This document shows, one piece after another, positions 6,001-47,118 of a DNA stretch of 64,000 nt (its first letter is position 1; each line of letters opens with the position of its first letter). This DNA is from Patescibacteria group bacterium (GTDB lineage: Bacteria > Patescibacteriota > Patescibacteriia > UBA2591 > JAQUPP01), in contig JAQUPP010000001.1 of the NCBI GenBank assembly GCA_028716665.1, forward strand, positions 555,073 through 619,072, read 5' to 3'. The notes under the pieces are model-generated. The model was not told the DNA's origin. It did no database searches and was given only the letters and a program-made list of their open reading frames with translations. The position numbers and the translations under genes are program-made.

Positions 6001-9000
6001 TATGTGGCGAGCCAGAATAGAGGTTTGGAAATATTTGACATTTCCGATCCGACAGCGCCGATTTTAACCAAATCTTATATTTGGACGGGCAGCGGTTCGG
6101 TTTATGATATTGAAGTAATTGGCAATTATGCGTATCTTGCCAATTATACTTATGGTATTAAAATAATTGATATTACTGATAAATATAATCCACTTTTAGT
6201 CGGCAGTGCAGGCGTAAGTGGAAGCGCAGCCGGTATTGATATACAAGGTGATTATGCTTATGTCACAGACTATGGTGCTTATATGCATATTTTTAATATT
6301 TCCAATAAAACTTCGCCGCAATGGATAAGCAGTTATAATATTACCGGAGGTCAAGGCTTGGTGTGGAGAATAGCTGTTTCCGGCGATTATGCTTACGTGG
6401 CTGACAAAGGATATAATTTATATATTTTTAATATTGCCGACCCATATAATATCGCGCTTGTCGGCACTCTTGATTCTGACATATCAGGACAGAGTGACAG
6501 GGGTGCTTTAAATCTTTTTGTCAGCGGTACGCGTGTTTATATTGCGGATTACACTCGCGGTCTGCAAGTAATTGATATCAGCGATCCGACTGCTCCTTAT
6601 ATTTTATCTTGCATTGACAGAGTTAAAGATAATCAATTGTGGGCTGGAGCTTATTTTGGCGGAGTTATATCTGTATCTATCTCCGGACATTATGCTTATT
6701 TGATTGACACTTTAAGGGGTCTTTGGATTGTTGACCTTGATCAATTATCAGAAACACCGGCAGTGAATACTGCCAGTGGCGGTTATGTGACAGATATAGA
6801 AGTGCAAGGAGATTATACTTATGTTTTGGCGAATAGCAGTGCCGGGAGCGGTTCAACGGCATTTTCTGTTTTATCAATTTTTGATACCAGTACCAATCCG
6901 GCCACTTTAAAGAGTCGAATAAAAATTTATGATGCTTTGGGGATAACGGTCAGTGGTAATTATGTTTATGTGGCAAATCTTGGCAAGGGATTATTAATTA
7001 TTGATGTTTCAAATAAATCTGCTCCGCAGGGAGTCGGCGTTTATGATTCAACCGGTTCTACTTATGACGTGGCGGTCTCAGGAAATTATGCATACTTGGC
7101 GGATTATTCCGGCGGATTTAAAGTAATTGATATTTCTACTAAAACCAGCCCGGTTTATAAGACAGTTATTAATACAGGTGTCGCAACCCAGAGAGTTCAA
7201 GTAAAAGGCAATTATGCTTATGTGACTGATGCCACTACCGGTTTTCATATTATTAATATTACCACCCCCACTTCGCCTTCAGAAACAGGTTCAACTTTAC
7301 CGGTCAATGCTCATTATGACTTCTTTGTTGAAGGAAGTTATGTTTATGTCGGCGACAATACATCGGGTCTAACAATATACAACATTTCCAATCCGGCCGC
7401 GCCTTATTTGGTTGGTACTTATGATACCATGGGTAATGTTTATGACGTAAAAGTTTCCGGCGGATACGCTTATATCAGCGATTATGGCGGCGGACTTTTA
7501 ATTTTGGATGTTTCAATTCCTTCATCGCCGGCTTATGTTGGTAACTACATCAGCAAAAGCTCAACTTACAGACTTTTTGTCAAAAGGAATAAAATATATT
7601 TGGCTACGCAATATCACGGCGTGGAAGTTATAAATTTAAAAACACAAAATTCAAACGTTGTTTCAACCGGACTTGATACTTTGGCTGCTCCGATTTTAAA
7701 AGGTTCTTTAACCGCCACTGACACTGAGCCGACCGGCACTTCTATTACTTATTATTTAAGTGTTGATAACGGCACTACTTGGGAGGCAATTACGCCTGAT
7801 GGCAGTGAATATACTTTTACCGCTTTTGGTTCTGATTTAAAATGGAAGGCGGTTATGACCACTGATGATTCAACAATAACTCCAACTATTTCTCAAGTTG
7901 TAATTTGGGCTTCAACCGGAATGAGCAATACCGGTTATCTTATTTCTTCGGTTTTTGAGCAAAAATCTCCAAATTTTGCTTGGGAAACCATAGAATGGAC
8001 TGACAACGAAATACAAACTACAAGAGTAAAAGTTCGTACTGACGAGACTGCCGATATGGCCACAGCCACGACTTGGACAAATTGTCCATACGCGGTAGAC
8101 GAAGGCGATCTTGGCGATTTATCTTCTGTTTCCTCAACTCAACCTTATATCCAATATCGTCTTGAATTCGCCACTTCGGATATTGATGAAACTCCGATTC
8201 TTAGCGATATTGATATAACCTCAGCGGTTTATGCCACCGCGACTTATGATTATAGTCAAACTAATCCGGTTGGTTGGTATCACATTGATTGGGTTAATTC
8301 CGGCGGCACAGACACGGCTGTAAAAGTTAGAACTAAAGAAGCGGATACTCAAGAAGGATTAGACGATGATACTTGGAGTGATTGGGTAACTACCAGCGGC
8401 CAAGATATCAGAGAAATGGCCAGTCCGACAAAATGGATCAGGCTTGAAGTTCAAATAGAAACAAGAAAAAATAATGTTTCACCGATTCTGGAAAGTTTAA
8501 GTCTTTTTTACGCGGTCAATGTTACGCCAACAGTCTCAGAAATTTCGGCTCAGGAAAACGAAAATGGAGTGGTTCAAATTTCTTATACAGTTTTAGACGA
8601 GGACAGTGATAGTATTAGCACAACTTTTCAATATTGGGATGGTGATTCTTGGGAAGATTGCGATACCACTACGGGTGAAGGCAGTCATGATGTCACTCCG
8701 GGTTTGCAGACAGAATTAACCGGCACGTGGAATGTAAAAACAGATTATAATAATCAATATCTTGCCAATTCTCGCATTAAAATTATTATTGATGACAGTT
8801 CGCCTTATTTAAATCTTGGCGAAGATCAATCTACTACTTTTGTAATTGATACGAAAAAACCGACTACTCCGACTTTAAGTATTAACTCAGGCGCAGCGAT
8901 TACCAACTCTTTGTTTGTAACTTTAACTCCGGCTTGTGTTGATGACAGTGATTTAAAAGTTCAGTTTTCCAATGATGATTTAACTTATGGCACGGTCACC

Positions 9001-11928
9001 AATGTTGAAGGCGTGATAACTAATTCCGGCGAATGGGAGGCCAAGAGTATTGGTAAAAGTTGGATAATGAAAGCAATTGACGGCAGCACAAGAACAGCTT
9101 GGTTTAAATGTAAAGATATTTATGGCAATCAATCCGATACCGGCGGTTCGGCGACCATTAATTACGATACAGGTTTGCCCGGAGTAGTTGATAATGTCAG
9201 TATTGCCGATGCGTCAAATGAATATGTAGAACGTTATGCGTTGACTATTATGTGGGACGCTCTTAGTACTGAAGACAATCCTGATTTTTCAGCTTACAGT
9301 ATTGAGAGATCAACTGATGGTGTAACTTATTCACCGGCAGCCAGTATAAGTGATATCACCACTTCTGTTTATACCAATATCGGTCTTTCCAAAGATATTA
9401 CTTATTTTTATCGCATTAAATCAAAAGACACGGCTGATAATTATTCTTTACCTTCAAGTGTGGTTTCTTATCAACCGGCTTCGGAAGACGATATTCCCCC
9501 GGCTTTAACCGGCGGCTCTCCGGTTGCTACTTCGCACGAAGATTATGCCTTATTCACTTGGGCGACTGATGAACCTTCTGATTCTCACGTGGAATATGGA
9601 ATTATTTCCGGGACTTACACTTCCATGCAAGGTAATGACACTCAAACTGTTTCTCATTCAGTTCAGGTTTATGGATTAAATCCTTTAACCACATATTATT
9701 ATCGTATCAGATCCAAAGATGCCTCTGGTAATCCTTTGGTTTCTCCGGAATACTCTTTTATTTATTGGCCCCCTGAACTTGACGACATTCCATCTATTTC
9801 CGGAGAACAAGCTCAATCTCCGTCGGCTGTTGGCACTGAGGTAACTATTACTTGGATTACTGACAAATATACCACCAGTCAAGTTTACTATGGTTCGACT
9901 CAAACCGGAACTTGTGGAGAACTTAGCAGCTATACCACGGAAGATACAACTTTAAATAAATCGCATACCGTTTTATTAAGAAGTCTTCCTTATGACACTA
10001 CTTATTACTATTGCACACGTTCCAAAGATACTTACGATCATATCACTTGGGGAAGCATGAGAAATTTCACTACTGAAGCAGAACCAAGTCCGGATGACAC
10101 AACCGCTCCGGTTATTTCTGAAATCAATTCGTATCCCACAGAAACGCTTTGCACGATAATTTGGACCACTGATGATTCCGCCAATTCTCAAATTGAATAT
10201 GGTTCAACCACTGCTTACGGAACTTCAAGCACTCTTGATTCAACTTTAACCGCCAAACACGTGGTTCGCTTGACTGATTTAACCACTGAACAAGTTTATC
10301 ATTATCGAATCAAATCAAAAAATGCGGCCGATCTTGAAACCGTTAGCCAGGACTATACTTTTACTCCTCAATATGTTTCTCAGGAAGTAAGAGTGATTAA
10401 TGCAGGAGGAGGAGGCAGCGCAGCTGTCCCGACCAAAGACACAACTTCTCCGGTTATCAGCAACATATCTGCGTCTTCAATCAGCGACAACAGCGCCAAA
10501 ATTTCTTGGACTACTGATGAAAATGCCACCAGTCTAATTAGCTATGGTTTAACCACTGATTACAGTAATTATGTCTTCAGTGATATGACTAGCTTAATCA
10601 CTTCGCATCAAATCACTCTTTCCAATTTGACCAAGTCCACCGTCTATCATTATCAAGTCCTATCTCAAGACGCTTCGGGTAATCTTGCTCAAAGCGCTGA
10701 CGCCGTCTTCACCACTTTAAGTGTATCGGGTGGAACCACCCCGACTCAGGAAACCACGCCTGAAACTCCGGTTACTCCGGAAACACCGGTTGAACCAACA
10801 ACACCAATTGAACCGACTCCAACTCCTGTTACCGCCATAGATCAATCTTTTGTCACGGCCATGGAAGCAGCCAGACAAATCTCCACTCAAGTTACCGGAC
10901 CGGTTCTTGAAACAACTTTCCAGAATTTCTTGAACACTTTGAAAGACATCACGCCGGGTTTGTCGCTTGAAGCAGCTCCTGAGATTGAGATCTCAGCCAC
11001 TGACGCGATTATCAAATGGAAAACAAACAAACGTTCCAACTCTCAAATCGCTTTTGCCAAAGTTGCCGATTACGACGACACCAAATCAGAACCATATTCG
11101 CAAATTGTTGGCCAATCAAATGAGAAAGAATTAAATCACAATGTTAAAATTATCAACCTGACTCCTTCCACCGATTACTATTTCCAAATTCGCTCCAAGA
11201 GCATTATCGGTTCAGAAGCAAAATCAAAAAGATATACTTTCACCACGGCTTCGCAATTGCCCGAAGTGACTAATTTCTCCATCAAAAATATTTCTGAGAG
11301 AGCAGCCACTTTTGTTTGGCAGACAAATATCCCGACTGATTCGCAAGTGAAATTCATCCCTTATCGCAACAATGAACTGGCGGTGGGCGAAGCCCAGACT
11401 GTCAGCAAATCTGATTTCAATGTGGCTCACGAAATCGCAGTCAAGAATCTTGAACCGGGCACGACTTTCAATGTTTCGCTTGAAGGAAAAGATTTGCAGG
11501 GCAACAACTATTCTTTCCTGATTCCAAACTTCACCACCACCAAAGACAAAAATGCGCCAATCATTTCGCAAATCAGAACCTCAATCGCTTTGTCATCAAG
11601 AGGCGATGAAGTCCAGACCATTATTACTTGGAATACCAATGAACCTTCAACCTCGCAGGTTGAATACCAGGTTGGATTTGGTGAGGATGCTCCGACTGTC
11701 CAAATGACCGAAGATATCAGTTTGAGACAAGAACATTTAATGGTTATTACTTCGTTTAAACCCGGATCCATTTACAGATTCAGAGTCATTTCTGAGGATT
11801 CTTCGGGCAACAAAACTCAATCAACAACCAATACTTTACTGACTCCTCAAAAGAGATTGACCGTAACCGAATTGATTTTCCAAAACTTCCAACAGACCTT
11901 CGGATGGATGAAAGGATTGGGTAAATAA
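1..11928 (+). CDS. Giant surface protein, 5'-truncated by the window edge (frame open from nt 1; track start 184 is an internal Met). About 25 LVIVD-type beta-propeller repeats, two DUF2341-like modules, a LamG/ConA-like lectin domain, a second LVIVD block, a long Fn3-like array, a Pro/Thr linker, and a conserved C-terminal three-Fn3 module plus tail.
   Basis: Frame 1 has no stop from nt 1. Repeated 'GNYAYVAD..GL.I.D.S.P..P' units match LVIVD repeats. 'DIRFYDNDG..ELDY..ETY....ATFWVEV..L....NP.IYMYYGN' appears twice (DUF2341-like). 'LDFDGADNVSVP...ISVEFWIYPKG...WTHVVATYD' is LamG-like. Many 'YYYRI(R/K)SKD..GN' Fn3/PAP-N-like units. The C-terminal 600 aa are near-identical to ORF2 and ORF3. Confidence 0.8.
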   Translation, partial: AGQVGLSKPEETITENFSSTTKRDAAQTTADWNSGTNELTLKKTITPRIVGTYDTPATAYDVAISGNYAYVVDYNQGLEIFDISTPSTPILKSKLTSVMDAYGITISGNYAYIAGNDWGFWIVDISNPLSPTLVKRYYPWGSNTLKVDVLGNYAYIAHGGEGLRIVNITDRSNPSETGFYDTTGSCYDVKVRQVGGNIYAYVADGAPGLLIFDVTNPASPVLLDTLDTENARDVYVSGDYAYVSDGNYFRILDVSTPSDIKEKSIIDTLDGTEGIDVSGNRAYLASHSYGVQIIDITDKSNPSKISMVDTPQYLTDANNSAYQVAVSGNYAYVANGNNIGLVVIDVSEPFSPNFSESLKTLSDSQGVYVSGDYAYMAEGYQGLHIYDITGDTPSYVGSYDTPGYARDVYVSGDYAYVTDSDWGLQIINISIPSAPSFVSWYNTPGTAYQVVVDGDYAYVIDATTLQIINISNKALLTLTGSYNCPDNAYGLDKVGNYVYVTGYGQNPSFSAVNVTNPASPTLAGSYNGSEYGNQAYDVKVKTVGASTYAFLASYNYGFQVLNITNLGSISRATYLYSTETSYGIRLFLSGNYAYLANERGGLEVIDISNPAAINRQQKIDVPDYVMDVMIDGDNAYMAARSSGLQKVNITRPASLSSTPTSDYGREVFVSGNYAYMAEETNSSLSIFDITDKTAPVFLSNKDLAGTYCNDVKVVGSYAYVSCYDAGLYIVDVSDPANPVYKGVYNTPSYAYEVIVDGSYAYVADYTTLQIINISDPTNPTLTGSYNCSDYAYYLDKVGNYVYITSYNQNPNLTIVNVTNPASPTLAGSLYQNDRQLNGIKVNGSYAYVAYSAASGGVAVYNISNPASISKTGQWGLNDSTTNSSFITYSNNKVYLSAGTGGLHVVDVTTAATPAYVGTFDTTNTVRGSYISGNYLYFSDYIGGLKILDISQTMGAPTLEGSLDTPGNSYRLDKLGDYAYVADYSGDLRIINVSNPASPSATGNLSLTGNSYDVKAKVQGSKTYAYVGTDQLGLQIVDATTPASPTLANSVNIGSNIYGVELNNNYAYLASDTGGLNIVAIGGTNGSDSAQESSDNETFPYKKSIALTGAGDASTNYQIMVKVGYSSAATGVNLTCSGNCQADFDDIRFYDNDGVTELDYFKETYTLGDKATFWVEVKDSLSSGQNPTIYMYYGDNDASTTSSGANTFPLFFDDFTGTTIDTGKWSETDTSSKISQSDKIVVTGGAGWGNTSLYSVSDFARADNLELLFDYKPTGGTSVMFGWKDSTSGKSYTDLIYSFYDTSDTNRIYEDNGDRGQFSGGWIANNTYKVRMPLKTGGGAKYMRSTDGGRTWVLNYDSSYSTEATEKIGFINSDAAYEIDNAFIRKVSSADPKINNYIYNAGGSDLTEQASGNGDFPYKKTIGLLGQGDAGTNYQIEIKVGYAPTTNGVNLSCSSHCQTDFDDIRFYDNDGTTELDYWRETYTASDQATFWVEVKDSLSDGENPNIYMYYGNETADTASNSANTFTETNPDTFDVGSWHMEEGSGSTTDDASANSNTATINGATWTSSGKFGNALDFDGADNVSVPSSSELSPTDAISVEFWIYPKGRYSDWGNIIYKSGSYGLNWEGWNARMRWTIGASCGGSWGGGGLPTLAYNTWTHVVATYDKNLPSNQMNMYFNGVVGETLTCTNAIPVNSNALVMKIDNNIPVDQSERLDEVKVYNRALSADEVSSLYNYNLIRTRKSSSVDPEVANTISPFTPEIISSFDTPGNAWDVKVKTIGAVTYAFVADYSGGGLRIINVTDPANPVEVSSIGSGNTFRSVDVVGNYAYLALEGSDLYIYDISNIAVPFFVGNYSIVNYEAYDIQVISNYAYLANRQGGLYIIDVSNPYRPGMVSQYNTYPDYTWGLIVEGDYAYLATYTTGLKIIDLGDLSPPVQVSTTMAVGISNAQDVAVSGNYAYVAEYNWGLIVIDVSSTSTPSIVGSAQSFGNPYAITVDGDYAYVASQNRGLEIFDISDPTAPILTKSYIWTGSGSVYDIEVIGNYAYLANYTYGIKIIDITDKYNPLLVGSAGVSGSAAGIDIQGDYAYVTDYGAYMHIFNISNKTSPQWISSYNITGGQGLVWRIAVSGDYAYVADKGYNLYIFNIADPYNIALVGTLDSDISGQSDRGALNLFVSGTRVYIADYTRGLQVIDISDPTAPYILSCIDRVKDNQLWAGAYFGGVISVSISGHYAYLIDTLRGLWIVDLDQLSETPAVNTASGGYVTDIEVQGDYTYVLANSSAGSGSTAFSVLSIFDTSTNPATLKSRIKIYDALGITVSGNYVYVANLGKGLLIIDVSNKSAPQGVGVYDSTGSTYDVAVSGNYAYLADYSGGFKVIDISTKTSPVYKTVINTGVATQRVQVKGNYAYVTDATTGFHIINITTPTSPSETGSTLPVNAHYDFFVEGSYVYVGDNTSGLTIYNISNPAAPYLVGTYDTMGNVYDVKVSGGYAYISDYGGGLLILDVSIPSSPAYVGNYISKSSTYRLFVKRNKIYLATQYHGVEVINLKTQNSNVVSTGLDTLAAPILKGSLTATDTEPTGTSITYYLSVDNGTTWEAITPDGSEYTFTAFGSDLKWKAVMTTDDSTITPTISQVVIWASTGMSNTGYLISSVFEQKSPNFAWETIEWTDNEIQTTRVKVRTDETADMATATTWTNCPYAVDEGDLGDLSSVSSTQPYIQYRLEFATSDIDETPILSDIDITSAVYATATYDYSQTNPVGWYHIDWVNSGGTDTAVKVRTKEADTQEGLDDDTWSDWVTTSGQDIREMASPTKWIRLEVQIETRKNNVSPILESLSLFYAVNVTPTVSEISAQENENGVVQISYTVLDEDSDSISTTFQYWDGDSWEDCDTTTGEGSHDVTPGLQTELTGTWNVKTDYNNQYLANSRIKIIIDDSSPYLNLGEDQSTTFVIDTKKPTTPTLSINSGAAITNSLFVTLTPACVDDSDLKVQFSNDDLTYGTVTNVEGVITNSGEWEAKSIGKSWIMKAIDGSTRTAWFKCKDIYGNQSDTGGSATINYDTGLPGVVDNVSIADASNEYVERYALTIMWDALSTEDNPDFSAYSIERSTDGVTYSPAASISDITTSVYTNIGLSKDITYFYRIKSKDTADNYSLPSSVVSYQPASEDDIPPALTGGSPVATSHEDYALFTWATDEPSDSHVEYGIISGTYTSMQGNDTQTVSHSVQVYGLNPLTTYYYRIRSKDASGNPLVSPEYSFIYWPPELDDIPSISGEQAQSPSAVGTEVTITWITDKYTTSQVYYGSTQTGTCGELSSYTTEDTTLNKSHTVLLRSLPYDTTYYYCTRSKDTYDHITWGSMRNFTTEAEPSPDDTTAPVISEINSYPTETLCTIIWTTDDSANSQIEYGSTTAYGTSSTLDSTLTAKHVVRLTDLTTEQVYHYRIKSKNAADLETVSQDYTFTPQYVSQEVRVINAGGGGSAAVPTKDTTSPVISNISASSISDNSAKISWTTDENATSLISYGLTTDYSNYVFSDMTSLITSHQITLSNLTKSTVYHYQVLSQDASGNLAQSADAVFTTLSVSGGTTPTQETTPETPVTPETPVEPTTPIEPTPTPVTAIDQSFVTAMEAARQISTQVTGPVLETTFQNFLNTLKDITPGLSLEAAPEIEISATDAIIKWKTNKRSNSQIAFAKVADYDDTKSEPYSQIVGQSNEKELNHNVKIINLTPSTDYYFQIRSKSIIGSEAKSKRYTFTTASQLPEVTNFSIKNISERAATFVWQTNIPTDSQVKFIPYRNNELAVGEAQTVSKSDFNVAHEIAVKNLEPGTTFNVSLEGKDLQGNNYSFLIPNFTTTKDKNAPIISQIRTSIALSSRGDEVQTIITWNTNEPSTSQVEYQVGFGEDAPTVQMTEDISLRQEHLMVITSFKPGSIYRFRVISEDSSGNKTQSTTNTLLTPQKRLTVTELIFQNFQQTFGWMKGLGK
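10075..11928 (+). repeat. Conserved 3' gene module, copy 1 of 3, inverted relative to copies at 53355..55200 and 61368..63210. Encodes Fn3-like domains plus the C-terminal tail.
   Basis: Protein stretches such as 'FTTASQLPEVTNFSIKNISERAATFVWQTNIPTDSQVK' are 100% identical between ORF1 and ORF2. Spot nucleotide comparison of 11236-11350 against the reverse complement of about 53940-54060 gives roughly 90% identity. Boundaries are approximate. Confidence 0.7.
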
Positions 11929-11948: not shown

Positions 11949-12356
11949 ATGTATTTATTAATTAATAATTTGGAAGAAAGCAGAAATTATTTGGCTTTAA
12001 TAATGGACAAGTCCGCGAAAAAATATTTTTTTTTAACTTTGAAAAACAAAAGAGGACAAGACAATAATATTTTGAAAGGATTGGACAATCTTTTATCAAA
12101 AGTAAATAAAAGATTAAAAGATATTAAGGGTATTATTGTTGTTAATGGTCCGGGCTCATTTGTCGGCATTAGGGTGGCCTTGTCAGTGGCGAATACTTTG
12201 GCTTGGTTGTTAAAAGTTCCCGTGGTCGGCCTTAAGAATGGAGAGAAATTTAATTTGATTAAAATCGGAATTAAAAAATTAAACAAGAAAACAAAAACAG
12301 TCAGGCCGTTTTATGGGAAACTGCCAAATATAAGCCAACCTAAAGAGTTTTGTTGA
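11949..12356 (+). CDS. tsaB: tRNA t6A biosynthesis protein TsaB (YeaZ)-like, short form of 135 aa
   Basis: 'IIVVNGPGSFVGIRVALSVANTLAWLLKVPVVGL' matches the TsaB/YeaZ N-terminal signature (GPGSFTGLR). It lacks the C-terminal half of canonical TsaB. Confidence 0.5.
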   Translation: MYLLINNLEESRNYLALIMDKSAKKYFFLTLKNKRGQDNNILKGLDNLLSKVNKRLKDIKGIIVVNGPGSFVGIRVALSVANTLAWLLKVPVVGLKNGEKFNLIKIGIKKLNKKTKTVRPFYGKLPNISQPKEFC

Positions 12357-12409
12357 AAATTTAGAGGTTGGAAGCCGAATAAATTTTTACTACAAAACCT
12401 TTACCACCT

Positions 12410-12516
12410 TCTTTATCCCAACGATAAACTTTCGATAATCGTTAGGAATAAGGCGAAGCCGCTTCGCTTACGGCGTATCGTAAAAGGGTAGACCCCCGAT
12501 GGAGTAAAGGAGGGGG
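12410..12516. repeat. GC-rich, hairpin-rich intergenic element bounded by imperfect 14 bp inverted repeats (TACCACCTTCTTTA / TAAAGGAGGGGGTA), sitting in the same conserved sequence frame as the element at 14472..14630
   Basis: Hairpins GCGAAGC-C-GCTTCGC and ACCCCC..GGGGGT. Flanked by 'acaaaaccttt' on the left and 'gcaaaattatagttaaaaattt' on the right, the same flanks seen at 14461 and 14631. Confidence 0.5.
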
Positions 12517-12584
12517 TACGCAAAATTATAGTTAAAAATTTCGCCCCGCCAGCTGGCGGATTAAATAATTTAAATAAATTTACT

Positions 12585-13160
12585 ATGATCAATAAAATAA
12601 TGTTGCAGAAATTAAGCAAGGAATACAAAAATCACGTTTCAATGTTTTATTTGGTGAATCAGCAATCAAATGTCGCTTTGCACAAATCAAAACAGGCGAT
12701 TTTTTCTTTGCAGCGTGATCAAATCAGTGAAGCTGAAAAAAGTCTTAAAGAAGTTGAACAGATTTTTATTAAGCTTCAAGGTTCATTAACCAAGTCGCCG
12801 CAACTTTTATATGCAGGTGCTTATAAAGCGGCATTGGAAGAATATGCGGAAGCCAAACTATTTTGGCAAGCCATAAAATTCGGACAATTGAAAGAAATTT
12901 CCGAAATCAAGCTTGGTTTTGAAAGCTATTTGGGCGGTATTTGCGATTTAACCGGCGAATTGGTTAGAAAAATTGTTCTCTTGGCCACTGAAGATAAAGT
13001 TGAAAAAGCGCGAGAACTTAAAGAATTAATCACTCAAGTCGTTGGCGAATTGATTAAATTGGATTTAACCGGTTATTTAAGGACAAAATATGATGATGCC
13101 AAGAGAAATTTGAAAAAAGCGGAAGAAATATTGTACGATTTGAAAATAAGAAGCAAATAA
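12585..13160 (+). CDS. Helical protein, possibly translin family
   Basis: 'ESYLGGICDLTGELVRKIV' resembles the translin/TRAX 'G..DLTGEL.R' motif. Predicted all-helical, about 190 aa. Weak call. Confidence 0.35.
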   Translation: MINKIMLQKLSKEYKNHVSMFYLVNQQSNVALHKSKQAIFSLQRDQISEAEKSLKEVEQIFIKLQGSLTKSPQLLYAGAYKAALEEYAEAKLFWQAIKFGQLKEISEIKLGFESYLGGICDLTGELVRKIVLLATEDKVEKARELKELITQVVGELIKLDLTGYLRTKYDDAKRNLKKAEEILYDLKIRSK

Positions 13161-13164
13161 TTTT

Positions 13165-13395
13165 ATGTCATCACTCGGAGACATGGGGTCATTCTTAAAA
13201 ACAATAATAGGTACTTTTATTTTTGGCATAAAAAATGCTCCTTTGGTTTATATTCCCATTTTAATTTTTGTCGTTTTAATAATCATTTTGATTATTTTTA
13301 CCGGCAGAAAAAAATTATCAAAAACTAATTTTCCGGCAGAGCCAAAAACTTTAATGAAGAAAAAATTTCCGCCTCGTCCACCTTTTATCAAATAA
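13165..13395 (+). CDS. Small hypothetical membrane protein (one TM segment)
   Basis: Hydrophobic stretch 'LVYIPILIFVVLIIILIIF'. No recognisable domain. Confidence 0.3.
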   Translation: MSSLGDMGSFLKTIIGTFIFGIKNAPLVYIPILIFVVLIIILIIFTGRKKLSKTNFPAEPKTLMKKKFPPRPPFIK

Positions 13396-13432
13396 AGGCG
13401 TCGAGAATTTCGCTATAAGTAATAAATGTTAT

Positions 13433-14107
13433 ATGAAAGAAAATAAAAAGAGAATAAGGGCGCAAATTATTCCCGCTGTTTTGGAGAAAGATTTTAAAGA
13501 AGTTGAAGAAAAAATAAATATTTGCCGAGGAATATTCAAATTGATTCAAATTGATATTGGCGACAATATTTTTGTTAAAAATAAAACTTGGCAAAACGCT
13601 TCAGATCTTAAAAATTTTAATGTTCAAATGAATTTTGAGGTTCATTTGATGGTTGAAAATCCAAGGTTGGTTGTTAAAAAATGGTTTTTCAAAAAAATAA
13701 AAAGGATTATCTTTCATCTTGAAGCTGATAAAAATCCAAAACAAATTTTAAAATTGATCAAGCAAAAAGGTTTCCAAGCCGGATTGGCCATTAATCCAAG
13801 AACATCTTTAGAAAAATTAAAAAATATTCCGCCTGAATTGTTGGATGAAGTGCTTTTTATGGGCGTGGAACCGGGGTTTAGCGGGCAAAAATTCGAAAAA
13901 TCAATTTTGAAAAAAATTAAATCTTTCCACAAAATGTTTCCGAAAGTAAAAATAGGCGTTGACGGCGGCGTAAATCCAAAAACAGCGTCATTGCTTGAAA
14001 AATCAGGCGCAAATTATTTATTTGTCGGTTCTTATTTCTGGAAAAATTTAAAGAAATATCCTGGTCAAGAAAAGAAAAAAATAAAAGAGTTAGTGAGACT
14101 CTTTTAA
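13433..14107 (+). CDS. rpe: Ribulose-phosphate 3-epimerase
   Basis: 'IIPAVLEKDF', 'HLMVENP', 'HLEA', 'MGVEPGFSGQKF' and 'VDGGV' match Rpe catalytic and binding motifs. Confidence 0.75.
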   Translation: MKENKKRIRAQIIPAVLEKDFKEVEEKINICRGIFKLIQIDIGDNIFVKNKTWQNASDLKNFNVQMNFEVHLMVENPRLVVKKWFFKKIKRIIFHLEADKNPKQILKLIKQKGFQAGLAINPRTSLEKLKNIPPELLDEVLFMGVEPGFSGQKFEKSILKKIKSFHKMFPKVKIGVDGGVNPKTASLLEKSGANYLFVGSYFWKNLKKYPGQEKKKIKELVRLF

Positions 14108-14114
14108 AAATTAT

Positions 14115-14453
14115 ATGTATTTTAAAGCTCCAAAAAATGATTTTAAAACAATCTGGACCCGACACGCTGTTTCAAAAATGCGCCAATACGGGCTTTCGGA
14201 AAATTGTTTGAAAAAATTGCTTCGCAATTCAATTCGTCAGGAAGAGGGGATTGCGCCGGGAACTACGGCCATAATGCAAGTTTCGGGCAGCAAAAAACAT
14301 CCGACTGAAATTTGGCTGATGTATCAAAAATCAGGCGCGAAAATAAAAATTATTACCGTTTGGCGTTATCCGGGCATAAGCCCGAAAAAAGAAATACCCA
14401 TACCCGAAGACATAAAGGGCTTTGTCCAAAATTACAAGTCGGAGACGCAGTAA
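14115..14453 (+). CDS. Hypothetical protein, DUF4258-like (possible orphan toxin-like domain)
   Basis: 'WTRHAVSKMRQYGLSENCLKKLL...IKIITVWRYPG' resembles the DUF4258 pattern. No partner gene seen. Confidence 0.35.
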   Translation: MYFKAPKNDFKTIWTRHAVSKMRQYGLSENCLKKLLRNSIRQEEGIAPGTTAIMQVSGSKKHPTEIWLMYQKSGAKIKIITVWRYPGISPKKEIPIPEDIKGFVQNYKSETQ

Positions 14454-14471
14454 TTTTGGCAACAAAACCTT

Positions 14472-14630
14472 TACCGAGCACTCAATTTATTCTTTTTTTA
14501 TGTATTACGTTTATATAATCAAAAATCAGATAAAGAAAAAAATATATATTGGCTATACTGATGATTTAAAAAGAAGACTTAAAGAACGTCTCAAATCTAG
14601 TTTAGAGGAATAAATTGAGTGCTCGGTACT
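14472..14630. mobile_element. Miniature TIR-flanked element carrying a truncated GIY-YIG nuclease ORF. Perfect 20 bp terminal inverted repeats: TACCGAGCACTCAATTTATT at 14472-14491 and AATAAATTGAGTGCTCGGTA at 14611-14630.
   Basis: The inverted repeats are read directly from the sequence and are perfect over 20 of 20 bp. The internal ORF encodes 'MYYVYIIKNQIKKKIYIGYTDDLKRRLKE...'. Confidence 0.7.
14500..14613 (+). pseudogene. Truncated GIY-YIG nuclease remnant (37 aa, N-terminal GIY..YIG half only), paralogous to the intact gene at 52443..52691
   Basis: 'YYVYIIKNQ...IYIGYTDDLKRRLKE' aligns with '[28 protein letters not shown]' of the 82-aa GIY-YIG protein. It ends before the catalytic Glu region. 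Confidence 0.6.
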
Positions 14631-14650
14631 CAAAATTATAGTTAAAAATT

Positions 14651-15814
14651 TTGCGTTTTCAACTTAAATTTTCAAATAATTTTGGTATGAAAAGAAAATA
14701 CAGATTCATTAAAGCATTGGCATGTTTTGCCGGAACCATTATCGGAGTCGGATTTTTTTGTTTGCCTTATGTGGCGCGACAAGCGGGATTTTTTGTCGTT
14801 GTCGCGTATTTTATTTTAATGTCCGGCATAGTTATTGTCATTCATTCTCTCTTGGGTGAAGTGACTTGCGACACCCATAGAGTTGCCAGAATTCCCGGTT
14901 ACGCCGAAGAATATCTCGGCAAAAGAGCAAAAAAAATAAGCTTTACGGTTTCTTTACTCAGTTTAACCGGAGCGCTCTTGGCTTATCTTATTATGGGTGG
15001 AGAGTTTTTGTATTTATTATTATCGCCATTGATCGGGGGCGCTGTTATTTATTATGTCTTGGCTTATTTTATTTTGGGATCAATTATAATTTATCGCGAT
15101 CGGTGCGCTATGGTGCCGATTCAATTGATTTTAGGAGTTGTTTTTGTATTGATACTTTTATTTTTCTTTTTCAGAGGCCTACCCTATGTTCATTTGAAGA
15201 ATTTAGTCACCTTTGATTATCGTCTTTTAACAATGCCTTACGGAGTAGTATTGTTTTCTCTTTGGGGCATTACTTTGGTGCCGGAAGCCAAGGAAATCGT
15301 GGATCGAAACCGCAAAAAACTTTTTAAAGTAATCGGTTTTGGCGTTATTATTGCCGCCATTTGCTATCTGCTTTTTATTTTTACTATTTTGGGCGTCAGC
15401 GGTGCAGAAACAACCAATGACGCTATTTTGGGATTTAGTAAAATTATTGATCCCAGATTGATTTATTTGGGTTTCTTTTTGGGATTAATCACCACTTTTA
15501 CTTCTTTTATCAGCATCGGGACGACTTTGAAGAAAATTTTTTGGTATGATTTGAAATTATCCAAAAAGAAATCTTGGGCTTTTGCTTGTTTTATTCCTCT
15601 TGCCTTGTATTTATTGGGTTTTAAAAATTGCATTGATGTTATCGGTCTGACCGGCGGGATTTTTTTGGGGCTGGAAGGAATTATTGTCATTCTAATTTAT
15701 CAGCATTTTGTTAAAAAAAGATTTCAATATCGCATACCGTTTTTCACTTATCTTTTGATAATTTTGCTTTTATTGGGCATGGTTTCGGAAATCGCTTATT
15801 TATTTATCCGTTAA
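14651..15814 (+). CDS. Amino acid permease-like integral membrane transporter (AAAP/aromatic amino acid permease-like)
   Basis: Ten or more predicted TM segments. N-terminal 'AGTIIGVGFFCLPY' resembles the amino-acid transporter signature. Confidence 0.45.
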   Translation: MRFQLKFSNNFGMKRKYRFIKALACFAGTIIGVGFFCLPYVARQAGFFVVVAYFILMSGIVIVIHSLLGEVTCDTHRVARIPGYAEEYLGKRAKKISFTVSLLSLTGALLAYLIMGGEFLYLLLSPLIGGAVIYYVLAYFILGSIIIYRDRCAMVPIQLILGVVFVLILLFFFFRGLPYVHLKNLVTFDYRLLTMPYGVVLFSLWGITLVPEAKEIVDRNRKKLFKVIGFGVIIAAICYLLFIFTILGVSGAETTNDAILGFSKIIDPRLIYLGFFLGLITTFTSFISIGTTLKKIFWYDLKLSKKKSWAFACFIPLALYLLGFKNCIDVIGLTGGIFLGLEGIIVILIYQHFVKKRFQYRIPFFTYLLIILLLLGMVSEIAYLFIR

Positions 15815-15821
15815 ATATATT

Positions 15822-17318
15822 ATGTGGCACCCGAGTGATCGCCAAAAATATCGTTTTTATGAAATGTTTCCCGGAATTATCGTTTGGGTAATATTATTGG
15901 GAAGTCTTTTATTGTCATTTATAAGACCCATTTGGGTTATTTATTTTATTATTGTTTTTGATCTTTATTGGCTGACCCAGGTTTTATATTTGTCAATTTT
16001 GCTTATTTACGCTTGGCGCAAATATCGCAAAAATTTAAAAATTAATTGGCGCGAAAGAGCGGAAAAGTTGCCCGGTTATGCGGATATTCATCATTTGGTA
16101 TTCTTCGCAACTTATAAAGAAGAAATAGATGTTGTCGGACCGACTTTTGAAGCTTTAATAAAATCAGATTATCCTTTGGACAAATTGATAGTTGTTTTGG
16201 CGGGGGAAGAAAAAGATAAAGATAATTTCTTAAAAATGGCGGAAGAAATTAGAAATAGATATGCCGATAAATTTTTTAAATTTTTAATAACCGTTCACCC
16301 GAAAAATTTACCTGATGAAATTCCTGGCAAGGGTTCCAATTTGCATTTTTCCGGACAAGAAGCGCAAAAAATAATCGATGAATTGGGTCTGCCTTATGAA
16401 AAAATAATAGTTTCCAGTTTTGATGTTGATACCTGTGTTCATCCTTTGTATCTTCCATATTTAACTTATGTTTATCTCACTCATCCGGATCCCACTCATT
16501 GTTCTTATCAGCCCGTAGCGGTGTTTAATAATAATATTTGGGACTCGCCGGCGCTTACGAGAGTGGTGGCCAGAGGAACAACTTTTTGGCTTTTAACCGA
16601 ACTTACCAAGCCGCATATTTATTTTACTTTTTCCAGCCATGCCATGAGTTTTAAGGCTTTAACTGACATTGGTTTTTGGCAAAAAGACGTGGTCAGCGAG
16701 GACTCCAGAATTTTTCTGCAATGTTACAATTATTATAACGGCAATTATCAAACAGTTCCGCTTTATATGTCTGTCTCAATGGATACGGTTTATGTCGGTT
16801 CAATTAAAAAAACTTTGATTAATCAGTATAAGCAAATAATGCGTTGGGGTTATGGAGTTGAAAATGTTCCCTGGATGATATGTAATTTTTTAAAAAACAA
16901 AAAAATGCCTTTTAAAAAAAAGATACCCCCATTTTGGGTTCAATTTGAAGGTTCATGCACTTGGGCCACGGTGCCGCTTTTAATTTTTATTTTGGGCAAC
17001 TTGCCGATGCGCATCGCTCATTTGCAAAATAAAACAGAAGCGATTGTTCATAACGCTCCTTTCGTTTTGGAAAAATTGATGACTTTTACTTTAGTCGGAA
17101 TTTTCTTGTCTGCTATTTTAAGCACTATTTTATTGCCTCCAAAGCCTCAAAAACATAAAATCACTCAATATTTTTTTATGATTTTTCAATGGCTTCTTTT
17201 TCCGATTACAATGATTATTTTCGGTTCTATTCCGGCCGGAGAGGGAATCACCAGATTAATGCTGGGTAAATATATCGGTTTCAGGGTGACGGAAAAAAAG
17301 AGAAAAGTTATAAAATAG
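15822..17318 (+). CDS. Membrane-embedded family-2 glycosyltransferase, processive type (cellulose/chitin-synthase-like)
   Basis: N-terminal and C-terminal TM segments. 'SSFDVDTCVHP' (DxD-like), 'SEDSRIF' and the 'KQIMRWGYG' QxxRW motif. Confidence 0.55.
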   Translation: MWHPSDRQKYRFYEMFPGIIVWVILLGSLLLSFIRPIWVIYFIIVFDLYWLTQVLYLSILLIYAWRKYRKNLKINWRERAEKLPGYADIHHLVFFATYKEEIDVVGPTFEALIKSDYPLDKLIVVLAGEEKDKDNFLKMAEEIRNRYADKFFKFLITVHPKNLPDEIPGKGSNLHFSGQEAQKIIDELGLPYEKIIVSSFDVDTCVHPLYLPYLTYVYLTHPDPTHCSYQPVAVFNNNIWDSPALTRVVARGTTFWLLTELTKPHIYFTFSSHAMSFKALTDIGFWQKDVVSEDSRIFLQCYNYYNGNYQTVPLYMSVSMDTVYVGSIKKTLINQYKQIMRWGYGVENVPWMICNFLKNKKMPFKKKIPPFWVQFEGSCTWATVPLLIFILGNLPMRIAHLQNKTEAIVHNAPFVLEKLMTFTLVGIFLSAILSTILLPPKPQKHKITQYFFMIFQWLLFPITMIIFGSIPAGEGITRLMLGKYIGFRVTEKKRKVIK

Positions 17319-17508
17319 CGTTGATTATTTTCGGATAACCGTTTAAAAAATGCCGATTTTGTCTGAACGAAGTGAAGGTACAAAATCGAGCACCCCGTAC
17401 AAATTCTCAAAAAAAAGCAATGTGTTAAAAAATAATTAGCCGTAGGCGATTCAGCGAAAGAAAAATAATTTTAAAATAAATTTTGTCGGGATTTGGTGCG
17501 GGGTTAAT

Positions 17509-18447
17509 TTAATTCAAAATAGAATCAATTATCCGCGGGTATCCATTAAGGAATTCTTTACTATTCATAACCTTTTTCCCTTCTAATTGAATTTCTTTCA
17601 AAATTAAAGCATTTTCGCCGCAAACTACTGCTAGTTGTTTGTCTGTTGTTAGAAATACTGTTCCGGATTTTTTATTATCTTGAGTTTCCAAAAAATCCGC
17701 TTTAATGATTTTTAATTTTTTATTGTCAAAATTGGTAAAAATTCCAGGCCAAGGATAATAAGCTCGCAACATTTTTTCAATTTTTTTCGCCGGAGAAGAC
17801 CAATCAATCAATCCGTCCTCTTTCTTGATTTGTCGCGTAAAAGTTACTTTGGTTTCGTCTTGAATGTTTGGTTTAATTTCTCCTGCCATCCATTTTGGCA
17901 AGGTTTCTATTAAAAGTTTTGCTCCCAGTTCCGCCAGTTCTTTTGATAATTTTGGTAATTGATAATTGGCAATTGGCGATCCCAATTGTTGTTGCGCGAC
18001 AATTGGTCCGTGATCCATTTTTTCGTCCATTAAAATAATACTGACTCCGGTTGTTTTGTCACCGTTTAAAATGGCGGTTTGAATAGGAGTGGCGCCGCGA
18101 TAAAGAGGCAATAATGAAGGATGAATATTAAGACAACCGTATTTCGGAATATCCAATATTTCTTTTGGCAAAAATTTTCCATAAGCGGCGACGATAAAAA
18201 GATCCGGTTTAGAATTTAGAATTTGGAATTTAGAATCTAGAATTTTGTCAGGTTGAAGAACGGGAATGTCATATTTGAGAGCTAATTCTTTTACTGGTGG
18301 AGCGGTTAAAATTTGTTTTCTGCCCACTGGTTTATCTGATTCAGTGATAACTTTGATTGGTTTAAATTCAGTTTGGCTCAGTAAATCTAAAACAATAGCC
18401 CCAAATTCAGGCGTACCCCAAAAAATAATTTTATTTTGACTGTTCAT
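17509..18447 (-). CDS. fmt: Methionyl-tRNA formyltransferase
   Basis: 'IIFWGTPEFG', 'NIHPSLLPLYRGATPIQTAILNGDKTTGVSI' and a C-terminal Fmt domain. Confidence 0.85.
   Translation of the reverse strand: MNSQNKIIFWGTPEFGAIVLDLLSQTEFKPIKVITESDKPVGRKQILTAPPVKELALKYDIPVLQPDKILDSKFQILNSKPDLFIVAAYGKFLPKEILDIPKYGCLNIHPSLLPLYRGATPIQTAILNGDKTTGVSIILMDEKMDHGPIVAQQQLGSPIANYQLPKLSKELAELGAKLLIETLPKWMAGEIKPNIQDETKVTFTRQIKKEDGLIDWSSPAKKIEKMLRAYYPWPGIFTNFDNKKLKIIKADFLETQDNKKSGTVFLTTDKQLAVVCGENALILKEIQLEGKKVMNSKEFLNGYPRIIDSILN
18208..18245. repeat. GAATTTRGA-type short tandem repeat block inside fmt, near-identical to 34111..34143
   Basis: 'tttagaatttagaatttggaatttagaatctagaatt' compared with 'agaatttggaatttggaatttggaatctagaat' at 34111. 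Confidence 0.6.
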
Positions 18448-18491
18448 ATTAAATATTATATCATTTTTTTAAAAAAATTACCATACAAAAT

Positions 18492-20901: not shown

Positions 20902-21041
20902 ACCAGGTAGTAGAAATTTGACTAATTAATATTAAATATTTTTTTAAACTTAGGCTAAGCGCCGAAATAGTAAGAATTTGATTTATTAATACCTATTTTT
21001 ACAGCCCACCTTAGTGGGCGGTCAAATTTTCACTACCTGGC
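20902..21041. repeat. MITE-like intergenic element copy A, about 140 bp, with 21 bp terminal inverted repeats ACCAGGTAGTAGAAATTTGAC / GTCAAATTTTCACTACCTGGC
   Basis: The inverted repeats are read directly. The same repeats bound a second element at 26213..26356. There is an internal hairpin 'gcccac ctta gtgggc'. Confidence 0.65.
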
Positions 21042-26213: not shown

Positions 26214-26356
26214 CCAGGTAGTAGAATTTTGACTTATTTTTTTTAAGGGCGGTAAGAGGTAATTAATAAATTTTTAAGCTAATAAATTGATAAGTATATA
26301 TAAATAAAGAAATTAAATAAAAAATTAAAGGCCCTGTCAAAATTTCACTACCTGGT
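26213..26356. repeat. MITE-like intergenic element copy B: ACCAGGTAGTAGAATTTTGAC ... GTCAAAATTTCACTACCTGGT
   Basis: Same terminal inverted repeats as 20902..21041. It starts at the last base of the nadK stop codon. The AT-rich interior differs from copy A. Confidence 0.65.
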
Positions 26357-26413
26357 TGACAAATAGCAATTTTTTTGATATTATAATAATAATTTTGCAG
26401 CTCTTTACAATAT

Positions 26414-26427
26414 CCGCTAAATAGCGG
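26414..26427 (+). promoter_or_regulatory. Perfect palindrome CCGCTAAATAGCGG immediately 5' of the pncB ribosome-binding site (AAAGGAGG). Candidate operator.
   Basis: Read directly from the sequence. It lies 4 bp before a strong SD and 15 bp before the ATG. Confidence 0.35.
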
Positions 26428-26441
26428 AAAAGGAGGAAAAG

Positions 26442-27656: not shown

Positions 27657-27707
27657 TAATTTTTTCCGTCTTTAAAAAATAAAAAATCCAAAAAAAGAAA
27701 AAGGGAG

Positions 27708-28319
27708 GTGATTAAAATGAAAGGAAAGATTATCAGGATAAATTTGATAGTGGATGGGATTATTGGTTTTCTTGAAGAAGGTCCGCTTTTCAGTCCGAGA
27801 ACCAGAATAATTATTCCGCACATTGATGAGTATTTAAAAAAGGAATGGACCGAAGAGAGAAGACATAATCAAGAAACCATTTTTGTCGGAGATGCGCATG
27901 GTAAGAATGATCTGGAAAACAAAATATTCGGTGTTCATTGTCAAAAGGGAAGCAAGGAAGCTCAAATTATTCAAGAATTGCGTTGGTGCGCGGAAAATAG
28001 TTATAGCTCGGTTTATACTAAAAAAAGTCACAGCGCGCTTTTTGAAACAGGTTTATTGGATCATCTACAGGCGTATCATCCGTTTAACGCTCCGGTTCCG
28101 GAGAATATGGAAATAGTAATTATGGGAGCTTGGACTGACGTTTGTGTTTTGCACACAATAATTGACCTTGTGAGATACGGTTATAATAAAATTATTGTAT
28201 CAAAGGATTGTGTGGAAACCGGCGATTTACCTTGGCATCCGGGCGATGAAGTGCAAAAATGGGCGCTGGTTTATATAGAAAAAGTATTGGGCGCGAAAGT
28301 AGTAGACCATTTGGATTAA
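27708..28319 (+). CDS. pncA: Isochorismatase-family hydrolase, likely nicotinamidase
   Basis: 'MGAWTDVCVLHT' is the catalytic Cys context of the isochorismatase/nicotinamidase family. The gene lies downstream of pncB. Confidence 0.55.
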   Translation: MIKMKGKIIRINLIVDGIIGFLEEGPLFSPRTRIIIPHIDEYLKKEWTEERRHNQETIFVGDAHGKNDLENKIFGVHCQKGSKEAQIIQELRWCAENSYSSVYTKKSHSALFETGLLDHLQAYHPFNAPVPENMEIVIMGAWTDVCVLHTIIDLVRYGYNKIIVSKDCVETGDLPWHPGDEVQKWALVYIEKVLGAKVVDHLD

Positions 28320-46964: not shown

Positions 46965-47026
46965 ACCAAATTTTTTAAAATTTTTAAGTTATTTATAACG
47001 CGAAAAATTTTACTAAAAATTTGAGT

Positions 47027-47064
47027 ACCCGCCCAAGTTTTTCTTTGAAAAATCTGGGCGGGTG
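47027..47064 (-). terminator. Probable terminator for the gene at 47119..48435
   Basis: 'acccgcccaag tttttctttgaaaaat ctgggcgggt'. Confidence 0.5.
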
Positions 47065-47118
47065 AAAGTTTTGTTGCTAAATTTTGTTCGTCTTACAGAC
47101 TCCAAAATTCAGACAAAA

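Follow-up and report, generated by a model that had tools for sequence, protein, structure and literature searches.

A three-hairpin intercistronic module with an optional GIY-YIG gene in Patescibacteria and its relation to nuclease-associated hairpin repeats

REP/BIME-RAYT, Neisseria dRS3/NIME, Correia and BOX are multicopy intergenic hairpin repeats in which conserved frame units are combined with variable units and which are co-transcribed. In REP/RAYT, a hairpin-specific nuclease or transposase is associated with the repeats, and BOX has a modular A-B-C build. The closest published analogue of the element described here is the Ssn/SRM system, whose SsnA, a 94-amino-acid (aa) single-domain GIY-YIG enzyme, binds an oriented hairpin repeat as single-stranded DNA (ssDNA) and cuts beside it (PMC11893778). 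The ssnA gene is typically flanked by its repeats, which also litter the genome, giving the Ssn/SRM arrangement NTS-ssnA-NTS (Chenal et al. 2025; PMC11893778). Free-standing GIY-YIG seg genes of phage T4 lie between conserved genes, are often promoter-less and carried on the host's transcript, have RNA hairpins at their borders and are sporadically distributed (PMC2988022), and in rRNA genes of the Candidate Phyla Radiation (CPR), GIY-YIG open reading frames (ORFs) sit in non-intron insertions, mostly at the tops or bases of stem-loops (PMC11270868). Here we describe a module of three abutting hairpins, the middle one of which can hold a small GIY-YIG gene, found between genes in a 64,000-nt stretch of a Patescibacteria group bacterium (GenBank assembly GCA_028716665.1, contig JAQUPP010000001.1, positions 555,073 to 619,072 of the forward strand; hereafter the window). 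We found no description of such a three-hairpin module in Patescibacteria in the literature.

A repeated frame and its three hairpins

A sequence-only reading of the window had reported one conserved frame occurring twice, 2 kb apart, around different inserts, and both copies are indeed present as exact sequence matches. The frame, ACAAAACCTTTACC[insert]GGTAC(G/T)CAAAATTATAGTTAAAAATTT, occupies 12392-12541 and 14462-14651, with exact copies of its left half ACAAAACCTTTACC at 12392-12405 and 14462-14475 and of its right half CAAAATTATAGTTAAAAATTT at 12521-12541 and 14631-14651. The right half occurs three times in the window against a chance expectation of 0.14, a count reached by 0/100 dinucleotide shuffles; the third match (61846-61866) lies inside a coding repeat of a giant-protein paralogue and was set aside as a chance match. 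A diverged third copy of the frame does exist, at 46965-47118 on the minus strand. With the GGTAC prefix included, the right frames of copies 1 and 2 are identical at 28/30 positions in pairwise alignment; identity between the two copies is limited to the flanks, and the inserts are unrelated. Measured from ACC through GGT inclusive, the inserts are 115 nt (copy 1) and 155 nt (copy 2) long, a few bases off the 107 and 159 bp first given. The insert of copy 1 (12403-12517) is GC-rich as described, folds as a hairpin and has imperfect arms, with 16/21 positions paired, and that of copy 2 is bounded by a perfect inverted repeat, measured as 21 nt (TACCGAGCACTCAATTTATTC / GAATAAATTGAGTGCTCGGTA, 14472-14492 and 14608-14628). 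The GIY-YIG assignment of the second insert also stood, its 37-aa ORF matching positions 1-29 of 78 of the Pfam GIY-YIG profile.

The frame halves are probably the junction region of a modular, multicopy intercistronic element and not a target site. The left frame is the 3' arm of a hairpin (A) whose partner arm TAAAGAGTTTTGT overlaps the upstream stop codon, and the right frame is the 5' arm of a hairpin (C) whose partner, AAATTTTTAA-ATAATTTTG-GTAT, stands directly before the next ATG and partly includes it. The insert forms hairpin B, with a variable interior and with ACC opening and GGT closing it in all instances. Hairpins A, B and C abut without linkers, as seen in the fold of 12338-12590, in the inverted repeats and in the folds of 18 C units. 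The module thus reads, in order, stop codon, TAAAGrGyTTTGTC, small hairpin, nnACAAAACCTTTACC, inverted-repeat insert, GGTACGCAAAATTATAGTTAAAAATTTTGC, small hairpin and TTAAAT..AAATAATTTTnnTATG, with consensus arms TAAAGrGyTTTGT / ACAAAACCTTTA for hairpin A and GTAC-n-CAAAATTAT-AG-TTAAAAATTT / AAATTTTTAA-ATAATTTTG-GTAT for hairpin C. On the minus strand, every canonical right frame contains a perfect TATAAT, which in copy 2 points into hairpin B.

Copy 1 (12341..12584, plus strand) extends from the TAAAG that closes a TsaB-like gene up to the last base ahead of a translin-like gene's ATG, and its RNA fold consists of three abutting hairpins (z = -3.3). Its hairpin A (12341..12403, plus strand) pairs the 5' arm TAAAGAGTTTTGT with the 3' arm ACAAAACCTTTA, the latter being the left frame at 12392-12405, as supported by the fold, the inverted repeats and covariation; the upstream ORF reads across the 5' arm and ends at TGA. 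Hairpin B (12403..12517, plus strand) is a non-coding cassette bounded by terminal inverted repeats (TIRs) of a family termed F3, with imperfect ACCCCCTCCTTTA-type arms and a GC-rich structured interior. Hairpin C (12516..12587, plus strand), seen in the fold and in covariation, has the right frame GTACGCAAAATTATAGTTAAAAATTT as its 5' arm, CCGCCAGCTGGCGG at its apex and a degenerate 3' arm that reaches the ATG at 12585-12587.

Copy 2 (14413..14686, plus strand) lies between a DUF4258-like gene and a Trp/Tyr-permease-like gene. Inverted repeats and covariation define its hairpin A (14413..14473, plus strand), in which TAAAGGGCTTTGT pairs with ACAAAACCTTTA and an inner stem is formed by CCAAAATTAC / GTAATTTTGG; this hairpin contains the final 13 codons of the upstream ORF. 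Hairpin B (14473..14627, plus strand) is a TIR-bounded GIY-YIG cassette of family F4 with perfect 21-nt arms, its TIRs being identical to those of the full elements at loci L071 and L072. Hairpin C (14626..14689, plus strand), again seen in covariation and inverted repeats, pairs GTAC-T-CAAAATTAT-AG-TTAAAAATTT with AAATTTT-C-AAATAATTTTG-GTAT, and its basal stem takes in the A and U of the start codon (14687-14689). The diverged copy 3 (46965..47118, minus strand) reads ACAAAACTTTCACC-[short F2 hairpin, 47027-47063]-GGTACTCAAATTTTTAGTAAAATTTTTCGC and ends at the ATG of the gene at 46056-46964.

Arms were extracted by hand for the covariation counts. For hairpin C, 95.1% of cells are paired and 7/13 pairs have changed on both sides, a result equalled in 0/500 shuffles, and slid registers give at most 51%. 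The C-arm partners of diverged modules stay complementary throughout: CAAAATTAT / ATAATTTTG, CAAATTTTT / AAAAATTTG, TAAAATTGT / ACAATTTTA, CGATGTTGT / ACAACATCG, CAAGGTTAT / ATAACCTTG, CAAATTTGT / ACAAATTTG, CAATGTTGT / ACAACATTG and GAATTTTGT / ACAAAATTC. Hairpin A has 89.6% of its cells paired, with change on both sides in 2 pairs. Covariation extends to the base after GGT, whose partner stands just ahead of the start codon (GTAC/GTAT, GTGC/GCAT, GTTC/GAAT and GTAT/ATAT); the base after GGT therefore belongs to hairpin C, so that the ideas of a TA duplication and of a palindromic target fall. We had considered a TA/TAC duplication and the palindrome TACCGGTA that was expected of an insert-free junction, and rejected both, as the right flank is GGTGC or GGTTC at L068, L072, L074 and L075; the palindrome itself was never observed.

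The middle cassette, its GIY-YIG gene and an empty junction

At one orthologous junction, genomes differ by the presence or absence of the entire module, and hairpin B has been exchanged and inverted at otherwise conserved modules. At least four TIR families are found in B: F1 (ACCCTGTTAAATAA), F2 (ACCCGCCCAGATTT), F3 (ACCCCCTCCTTTA) and F4 (ACC(G/A)AGCACTCA). Each is found at several loci, and F1, F2 and F3 occur in both orientations. The tabulated cassettes without a full gene, among them those of window copies 1 and 3, are 37-155 nt long with TIRs of 9-21 bp, compared with ~270 nt for cassettes with the full gene, and their interiors are unrelated. Inversion is evident from pairs of cassettes that align as reverse complements: window copy 1 and L038 (89%, against 69% in the same orientation), L038 and L052a of one metagenome-assembled genome (MAG; 91%), L003c and L062 (84%), and window copy 3 and L034b (92%). 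The copy 1 cassette also has 84% identity to that of L052, there in the same orientation. Exchange is best seen at L034, which is syntenic with window positions 11949-18821 at ~90% nucleotide identity and has modules at the same two junctions. Its site orthologous to copy 1 holds an F3 cassette whose interior is AT-rich and unrelated, next to a hairpin C that has a variant arm and a large apex, and its site orthologous to copy 2 holds a 37-nt F2 hairpin in place of the GIY-YIG remnant. Modules are thus stable at junctions, while B and the C apex turn over.

The complete element is likely one that carries a GIY-YIG gene in the loop of hairpin B, with copy 2 of the window a dead derivative that arose by internal deletion. 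A protein search with the 63-aa upstream-extended ORF running through copy 2 returned 14 small GIY-YIG proteins, and P0002 and 13 homologues carry PF01541. P0002 (76 aa) reads MYYVYIIKNQIKKKIYIGYTDDLKRR[IKEH...AIRH]LKERLKSSLEE, and the window ORF (14500..14613, plus strand; 37 aa plus stop) is P0002 minus the bracketed 39 residues, that is, minus an in-frame 117 bp (39 codons). At the DNA level, copy 2 likewise differs from the full elements of L071 and L072 by a clean 117-bp internal deletion between identical TIRs. The KEH, Glu and Asn motifs are removed by this deletion, and copy 2 is considered dead because the His, Glu and Asn motifs are gone. A full cassette consists of a single-domain gene of 74-76 aa between TIRs of 17-21 bp, ACC-GAGCACTCAATTT... 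/ ...AAATTGAGTGCTC-GGT, inside the A...C frame. The family is moderately large: 984 clusters were found at E<=1e-3, or 84 if the cutoff is E<=1e-10, most of them of 73-110 aa. In an AlphaFold2 model (mean confidence score, pLDDT, of 91), the nuclease consists of the GIY-YIG domain alone, extended by a long C-terminal helix, and the nearest solved folds, all weak matches, are UPF0213 proteins followed by the I-TevI catalytic domain and Slx1. The full-length protein is therefore confidently predicted to be a minimal GIY-YIG fold with no DNA-binding domain.

Counting the window remnant, GIY-YIG genes occupy slot B at 8 independent junctions. The full genes lie at ParA|ParB (L071), TPR|L32 (L068), between pilin-like genes (L072), at ABC|FtsX (L074), at a junction of two glycosyltransferase (GT) cistrons (GT|GT, L075/L076), downstream of a PolX-type polymerase gene (L080), and after an aminoacyl-tRNA synthetase gene and before an L28-like gene as judged by eye (L082). 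In four further homologues, upstream read-through translates as ..NLY(P/R)AHNF, which corresponds to CTTTACC followed by the TIR, so that this junction of frame and TIR is present in them too. At L082 (1100-1215), an F4-type TIR hairpin (ACCCAGCACTCAG...CTGAGTGCTGGGT) is in addition nested in the apex of hairpin A, alongside the full GIY-YIG gene in slot B. Full-length GIY-YIG genes outside modules were found at window 52443-52691, L065 and L024. The first of these (minus strand, 82 aa) belongs to a different subfamily, and its start overlaps the stop of the upstream gene.

The GT|GT site allowed us to compare filled and empty versions of one junction. The Falkowbacteria-type GT1 glycosyltransferase consists natively of two cistrons of 323 aa and ~94 aa, cut inside the conserved ..GDxE|G.. 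motif, with more than 100 CPR homologues sharing the truncation point and with 4-10 nt between uninterrupted cistrons. The nuclease gene is present at this orthologous site in L075 and L076 and absent from L077, L078 and L079 (L075 525-2144, L076 1192-2800, L077 1501-2761, L079 1501-2788). The empty junction reads GACATGGAATAA-ATTT-ATGACAACA in L077 and GATATGGAGTAA-CACACATCAC-ATGACCACA in L079, and the filled one in L076 and L075 reads TAA/TAG-[A: TCTTTTGTT..AACAAAAGA]-TTACC-[TIR-GIY-YIG-TIR]-GGTGC-[C: TGAATTTTGT..ACAAAATTCGC]-ATGAC. Since the empty sites carry no frame, the inserted unit is the whole A-B-C block. An initial impression that the module of L075 splits a glycosyltransferase gene was discarded, as the gene is natively two cistrons and the module occupies their 4-10 nt spacer.

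Distribution, rival explanations and a possible mechanism

Among one genome per GTDB species (185,579 genomes), the exact 19-mer of the right frame has 10 matches in 8 contigs of the Patescibacteria MAG JBAZMD01 and 2 in JAQUOF01; the remaining ~35 loci are single matches in unrelated AT-rich genomes and are most likely due to chance. With the 19-mer in only 2 Patescibacteria assemblies of this set, the module is lineage-restricted. Further sites came from a metagenome scan, and in all ~33 module instances were collected from related Patescibacteria, each filled with an insert. Every instance lies between co-directional genes and spans stop to ATG, with 100% of modules oriented as the genes are. 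The gene pairs concerned are unrelated, and the flank common to the junctions is limited to the stop and ATG codons. Two junctions, L23|L2 and S17|L14, are inside the ribosomal-protein operon. Hairpins A and C without a nuclease gene are found at at least 25 sites, and in the small sample of distant GIY-bearing loci that was inspected, no A/C frames were seen elsewhere in intergenic regions. A viral origin was considered and is not indicated: of two IMG/VR matches to the 21-mer, the one that was read (L066) is without a frame and looks like chance, and the TIR had no match. The independent short-read Logan contig L001 (SRR22315505) equals window 12512-14645, with both of its ends inside right frames, which indicates branching of the sample's assembly graph at modules, caused by other module copies or by strain variants.

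The genes that follow the modules have no Shine-Dalgarno sequence (12560-12584 and 14660-14686, ..AAATAATTTTGGTATG), and strong AAAGGAGG sites and canonical promoters precede many of the window's other genes, for example at 26400-26441, 27690-27716 and 32270-32293. The genome may thus initiate translation in two ways. Within the modules, the sense strand has no more than a partial match to a sigma-70 promoter in copy 2 (9/12 positions, its -35 lying within the variable TIR) and none in copy 1. No intrinsic terminator was seen in either, as the hairpins are followed by GGTAC or ACC and not by T-runs; real promoters and terminators elsewhere in the window are canonical. The right frame was rejected as a promoter since TATAGT becomes TGTAGC, TTTAGT or TATAGC in relatives, losing key -10 bases, and no -35 is conserved. 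No Rfam family matched the 64 kb at the gathering threshold, a search of 12300-14750 at E<=10 brought up nothing relevant, and no tRNA was found by ARAGORN.

There are possible explanations for the frame other than a mobile module. One is that it is an intercistronic RNA element selected by the host (for processing or stabilization, for translational coupling, or as a promoter for genes without a Shine-Dalgarno sequence) and that the GIY-YIG gene is an occasional passenger. Full co-orientation with genes and the exact stop-to-ATG span are what one would expect of such an element, as are covarying arms, modules kept at orthologous junctions in ~90% identical genomes, downstream genes that lack Shine-Dalgarno sites where other window genes have them, and a start codon partly paired in the basal stem of C. 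We consider it unlikely all the same, as the module is restricted to one lineage, TTGACA/TATAAT promoters, Shine-Dalgarno sites and U-tract terminators serve the other junctions of these genomes, the sense strand has no consistent -35/-10, there is no Rfam match, the middle hairpin varies from 37-155 nt without an ORF to ~270 nt with the gene among unrelated sequences, and what occupies the center of the module is a nuclease gene or what is left of it after decay. The further suggestion that the flanks are just a promoter or terminator motif independent of inserts is contradicted by every flank being filled, by the missing U-tract terminator and by the lack of a consistent promoter. Quite improbable, too, is a repeated site that existed beforehand, be it a promoter, a terminator or a TACC|GGTA palindrome, and was filled independently by site-specific TIR elements. 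The sequence-only reading had offered this beside diverged copies of one element family, and it is the latter that is favored, because the only empty orthologous junction lacks any frame and no unfilled frame was found among the ~33 instances or in one scan of JGI metagenomes, where a search for the two halves 0-14 nt apart (ACAAAACCTTTA-N{0,14}-CAAAATTATAGTTAAAAAT) gave 0 matches. Nor do the frame halves behave as a target, being arms of covarying hairpins with partner arms 40-70 nt away, and the duplication and palindrome that a target would leave are not conserved. What survives of the target-site idea is that the middle cassette is exchangeable within the frame: at least four TIR families open ACC...GGT at exactly one position, B differs at orthologous sites of ~90% identical genomes, and both orientations occur. 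F2-like and F4-like palindromes are also present in the apices of A and C, as if palindrome centers draw insertions.

Two other explanations are far less probable. The 2-kb block between copies 1 and 2 had been thought able to move as a unit, with the modules as the ends of a composite that transposes or is deleted by direct-repeat recombination; direct repeats of 14 and ~27 nt do bracket it, and L001 starts and ends in the two right frames. Yet gene content and order are unchanged in the syntenic L034, which has a module at each of the two junctions, modules adjoin many unrelated genes, contig breaks are the usual effect of multicopy repeats on assemblies, and no genome was seen without the block or with the block relocated, so that this reading is hardly credible. 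Very doubtful, likewise, is a small RNA on the opposite strand that starts from the minus-strand TATAAT into hairpin B and terminates at hairpin A followed by UUUAUUUU. Modules do not share its -35, diverged ones have, for example, GCTACAA in place of the TATAAT, and its 'variable region' would have to be a self-paired unrelated hairpin or an antisense nuclease gene, again with no Rfam match; these points stand against the TTGAAA-16-TATAAT of copy 2 (11/12 positions, minus strand, 14662->14635) and the U-rich sequence that several modules have beyond hairpin A, read on the minus strand.

The modular mobile element that we favor has points against it as well. Most modules lack a nuclease gene, and families F1-F3 are without a known coding parent. 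The clean comparison of empty and filled sites comes from one junction only, where joint and stepwise arrival of A, B and C are not separable, and neither a target-site duplication nor defined element ends were found. The SRM consensus HGTCWY-N0-2-YYVSBRH-N0-5-WNVSBRG-N0-2-RNCYNB has 0 matches in the window and 12 loci, and a control NTS was detected by the same pattern. Inverted repeats would covary just as well as TIRs at the DNA level, so that covariation does not tell RNA structure from these; the invariant G-U at the foot of hairpin C follows from two fixed elements, the ATG and the closing GGT of B, and hence is no evidence, and mismatches in B arms show no clear bias of G-U versus A-C, so selection on B at the RNA level is not demonstrated. 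Finally, co-orientation could track the replication strand instead of transcription, since the change of gene strand near 37-40 kb coincides with a switch in GC skew.

The anatomy of the module is well supported, while its mechanism is inferred. By analogy with Ssn/SRM and REP/RAYT, the small nuclease may recognize the module hairpins, probably as ssDNA, and its breaks could seed the spread or copying of the block. Repair or recombination between modules, with the near-identical A and C units of 40-70 nt serving as homology, would then swap or flip B, and recombination of this kind would yield the same frame with different inserts without a separate insertion each time. In the transcript, the hairpins would fold the insert away, which may be why insertion inside operons is tolerated. 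Transcript-level selection is suggested by the stop-to-ATG span, the fixed orientation, the absence of a downstream Shine-Dalgarno sequence and the start codon paired in C; candidate benefits are that stop and start codons are kept close, RNase III processing, protection of mRNA ends, and coupling. It is possible, and we propose it tentatively, that the modules are an undescribed class of mobile element in which the nuclease acts as a hairpin- or ssDNA-specific 'transposase', ORF-less derivatives occupy dozens of operon junctions, and the hairpins hide the insert from translation and transcription or have been co-opted as processing or coupling signals. If true, streamlined CPR genomes would tolerate a selfish nuclease-hairpin element in their most conserved operons, and the three abutting hairpins would be a concrete example of a mobile element neutralizing its own polar effects. 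Of practical concern, assemblies break at modules, which also make ORFs called at gene ends too long or too short and could lead the annotation of promoters and operons in CPR MAGs astray.

The genes around the modules, and other repeats nearby, deserve brief mention. The bracketed 2-kb block (12585..14453, plus strand) holds translin-like, 76-aa ORF, ribulose-phosphate 3-epimerase (rpe) and DUF4258-like genes, which are ordinary residents and not cargo. Pfam labels in or near the block are TsaB-like, Translin, Ribul_P_3_epim and a Trp/Tyr-type permease; the earlier translin-like and rpe labels are thereby borne out, the DUF4258 match is weak and below the curated cutoff, and the 76-aa ORF has no Pfam match. 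Between this ORF and rpe, L034 (5158-5305) has an extra TIR-bounded insertion of ~150 nt with flanks GAATTTCGC/GAAATTCGC that the window (13396-13432) lacks, a presence/absence polymorphism of another small palindromic element. A different TIR element, CCAGGTAGTAGAAaTTTGAC...GTCAAAaTTTCACTACCTGG, is present at 20903-21040 and again, around an unrelated interior, at 26214-26355, the second copy being directly followed by a canonical TTGACA-N17-TATAAT promoter. A 57-nt GC-rich double hairpin (..CCCCGACGCCAATGGGTCGGGGCTCCGACCGAAGCGTCGGAG..) forms an inverted pair at 19348-19404 and 61038-61094, with 88% complementarity. In the distant Patescibacteria contig L068, an AT-rich palindromic repeat family (AATTACGAATAATGAATTATGAATCA... 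/ ...TGATTCATAATTCGT...) recurs in several intergenic regions (3700-3870, 4310-4376 and 5106-5200). The giant-protein gene mentioned above encodes a repeat protein of 3,900 aa at 1-11928, and its two large paralogues on the opposite strand (53355-61280 and 61368-63902) share inverted segments of 76-88% identity with it, ~40-50 kb apart.

Comparison with known systems

Seg proteins of phage T4 reach ~200 aa or more and include a DNA-binding domain, and their genes are single-copy, without TIRs or ORF-less multicopy derivatives, homing between co-infecting genomes. The module resembles the seg genes in placing a GIY-YIG gene, often promoter-less and bordered by hairpins, in a short intergenic spacer, and it also shows decayed copies. 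As with homing endonucleases, the nuclease gene is present or absent at an orthologous intergenic site (L075/L076 versus L077/L078/L079); however, the nuclease has no extra domain, and the sites are unrelated junctions without a common flank. The B cassettes share with miniature inverted-repeat transposable elements that they are short, non-coding and multicopy, carry TIRs and form families at several loci, but there is no target-site duplication, and the only coding parent found is the GIY-YIG nuclease and no known transposase. In contrast to REP, BIME, NIME, Correia and BOX repeats, the modules examined have no Y1 or DDE transposase in sight nearby and no TA duplication; the A-B-C order and orientation of the module are fixed, and the entire stop-to-ATG spacer is occupied. 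A long stem that encloses an optional ORF also recalls intervening-sequence-type inserts of 23S rRNA. Unlike the CPR rRNA insertions, the module is not inside rRNA genes, and yet it may explain the GIY-YIG-bearing non-intron insertions found there.

The likeness is greatest to Ssn/SRM. Both have a small single-domain GIY-YIG gene (roughly 75-95 aa) with hairpin-forming inverted repeats on both sides, and in both the oriented repeats are dispersed, with many mostly intergenic, gene-less copies; the architecture is like that of an insertion sequence, and recombination between repeats has been proposed. The module differs in having two different flanking hairpins (A and C) in addition to a third formed by the gene-enclosing TIRs, in running exactly from stop to start, in being strictly co-oriented with genes and in its Patescibacteria host. 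The pairing of a nuclease gene with cognate hairpin repeats is thus a known one, and it is the three-hairpin, stop-to-start design that is distinctive. If the proposed reading holds, the Ssn-type pairing of nuclease and hairpin would be extended to Patescibacteria, with a new motif, a new architecture and new specificity pairs.

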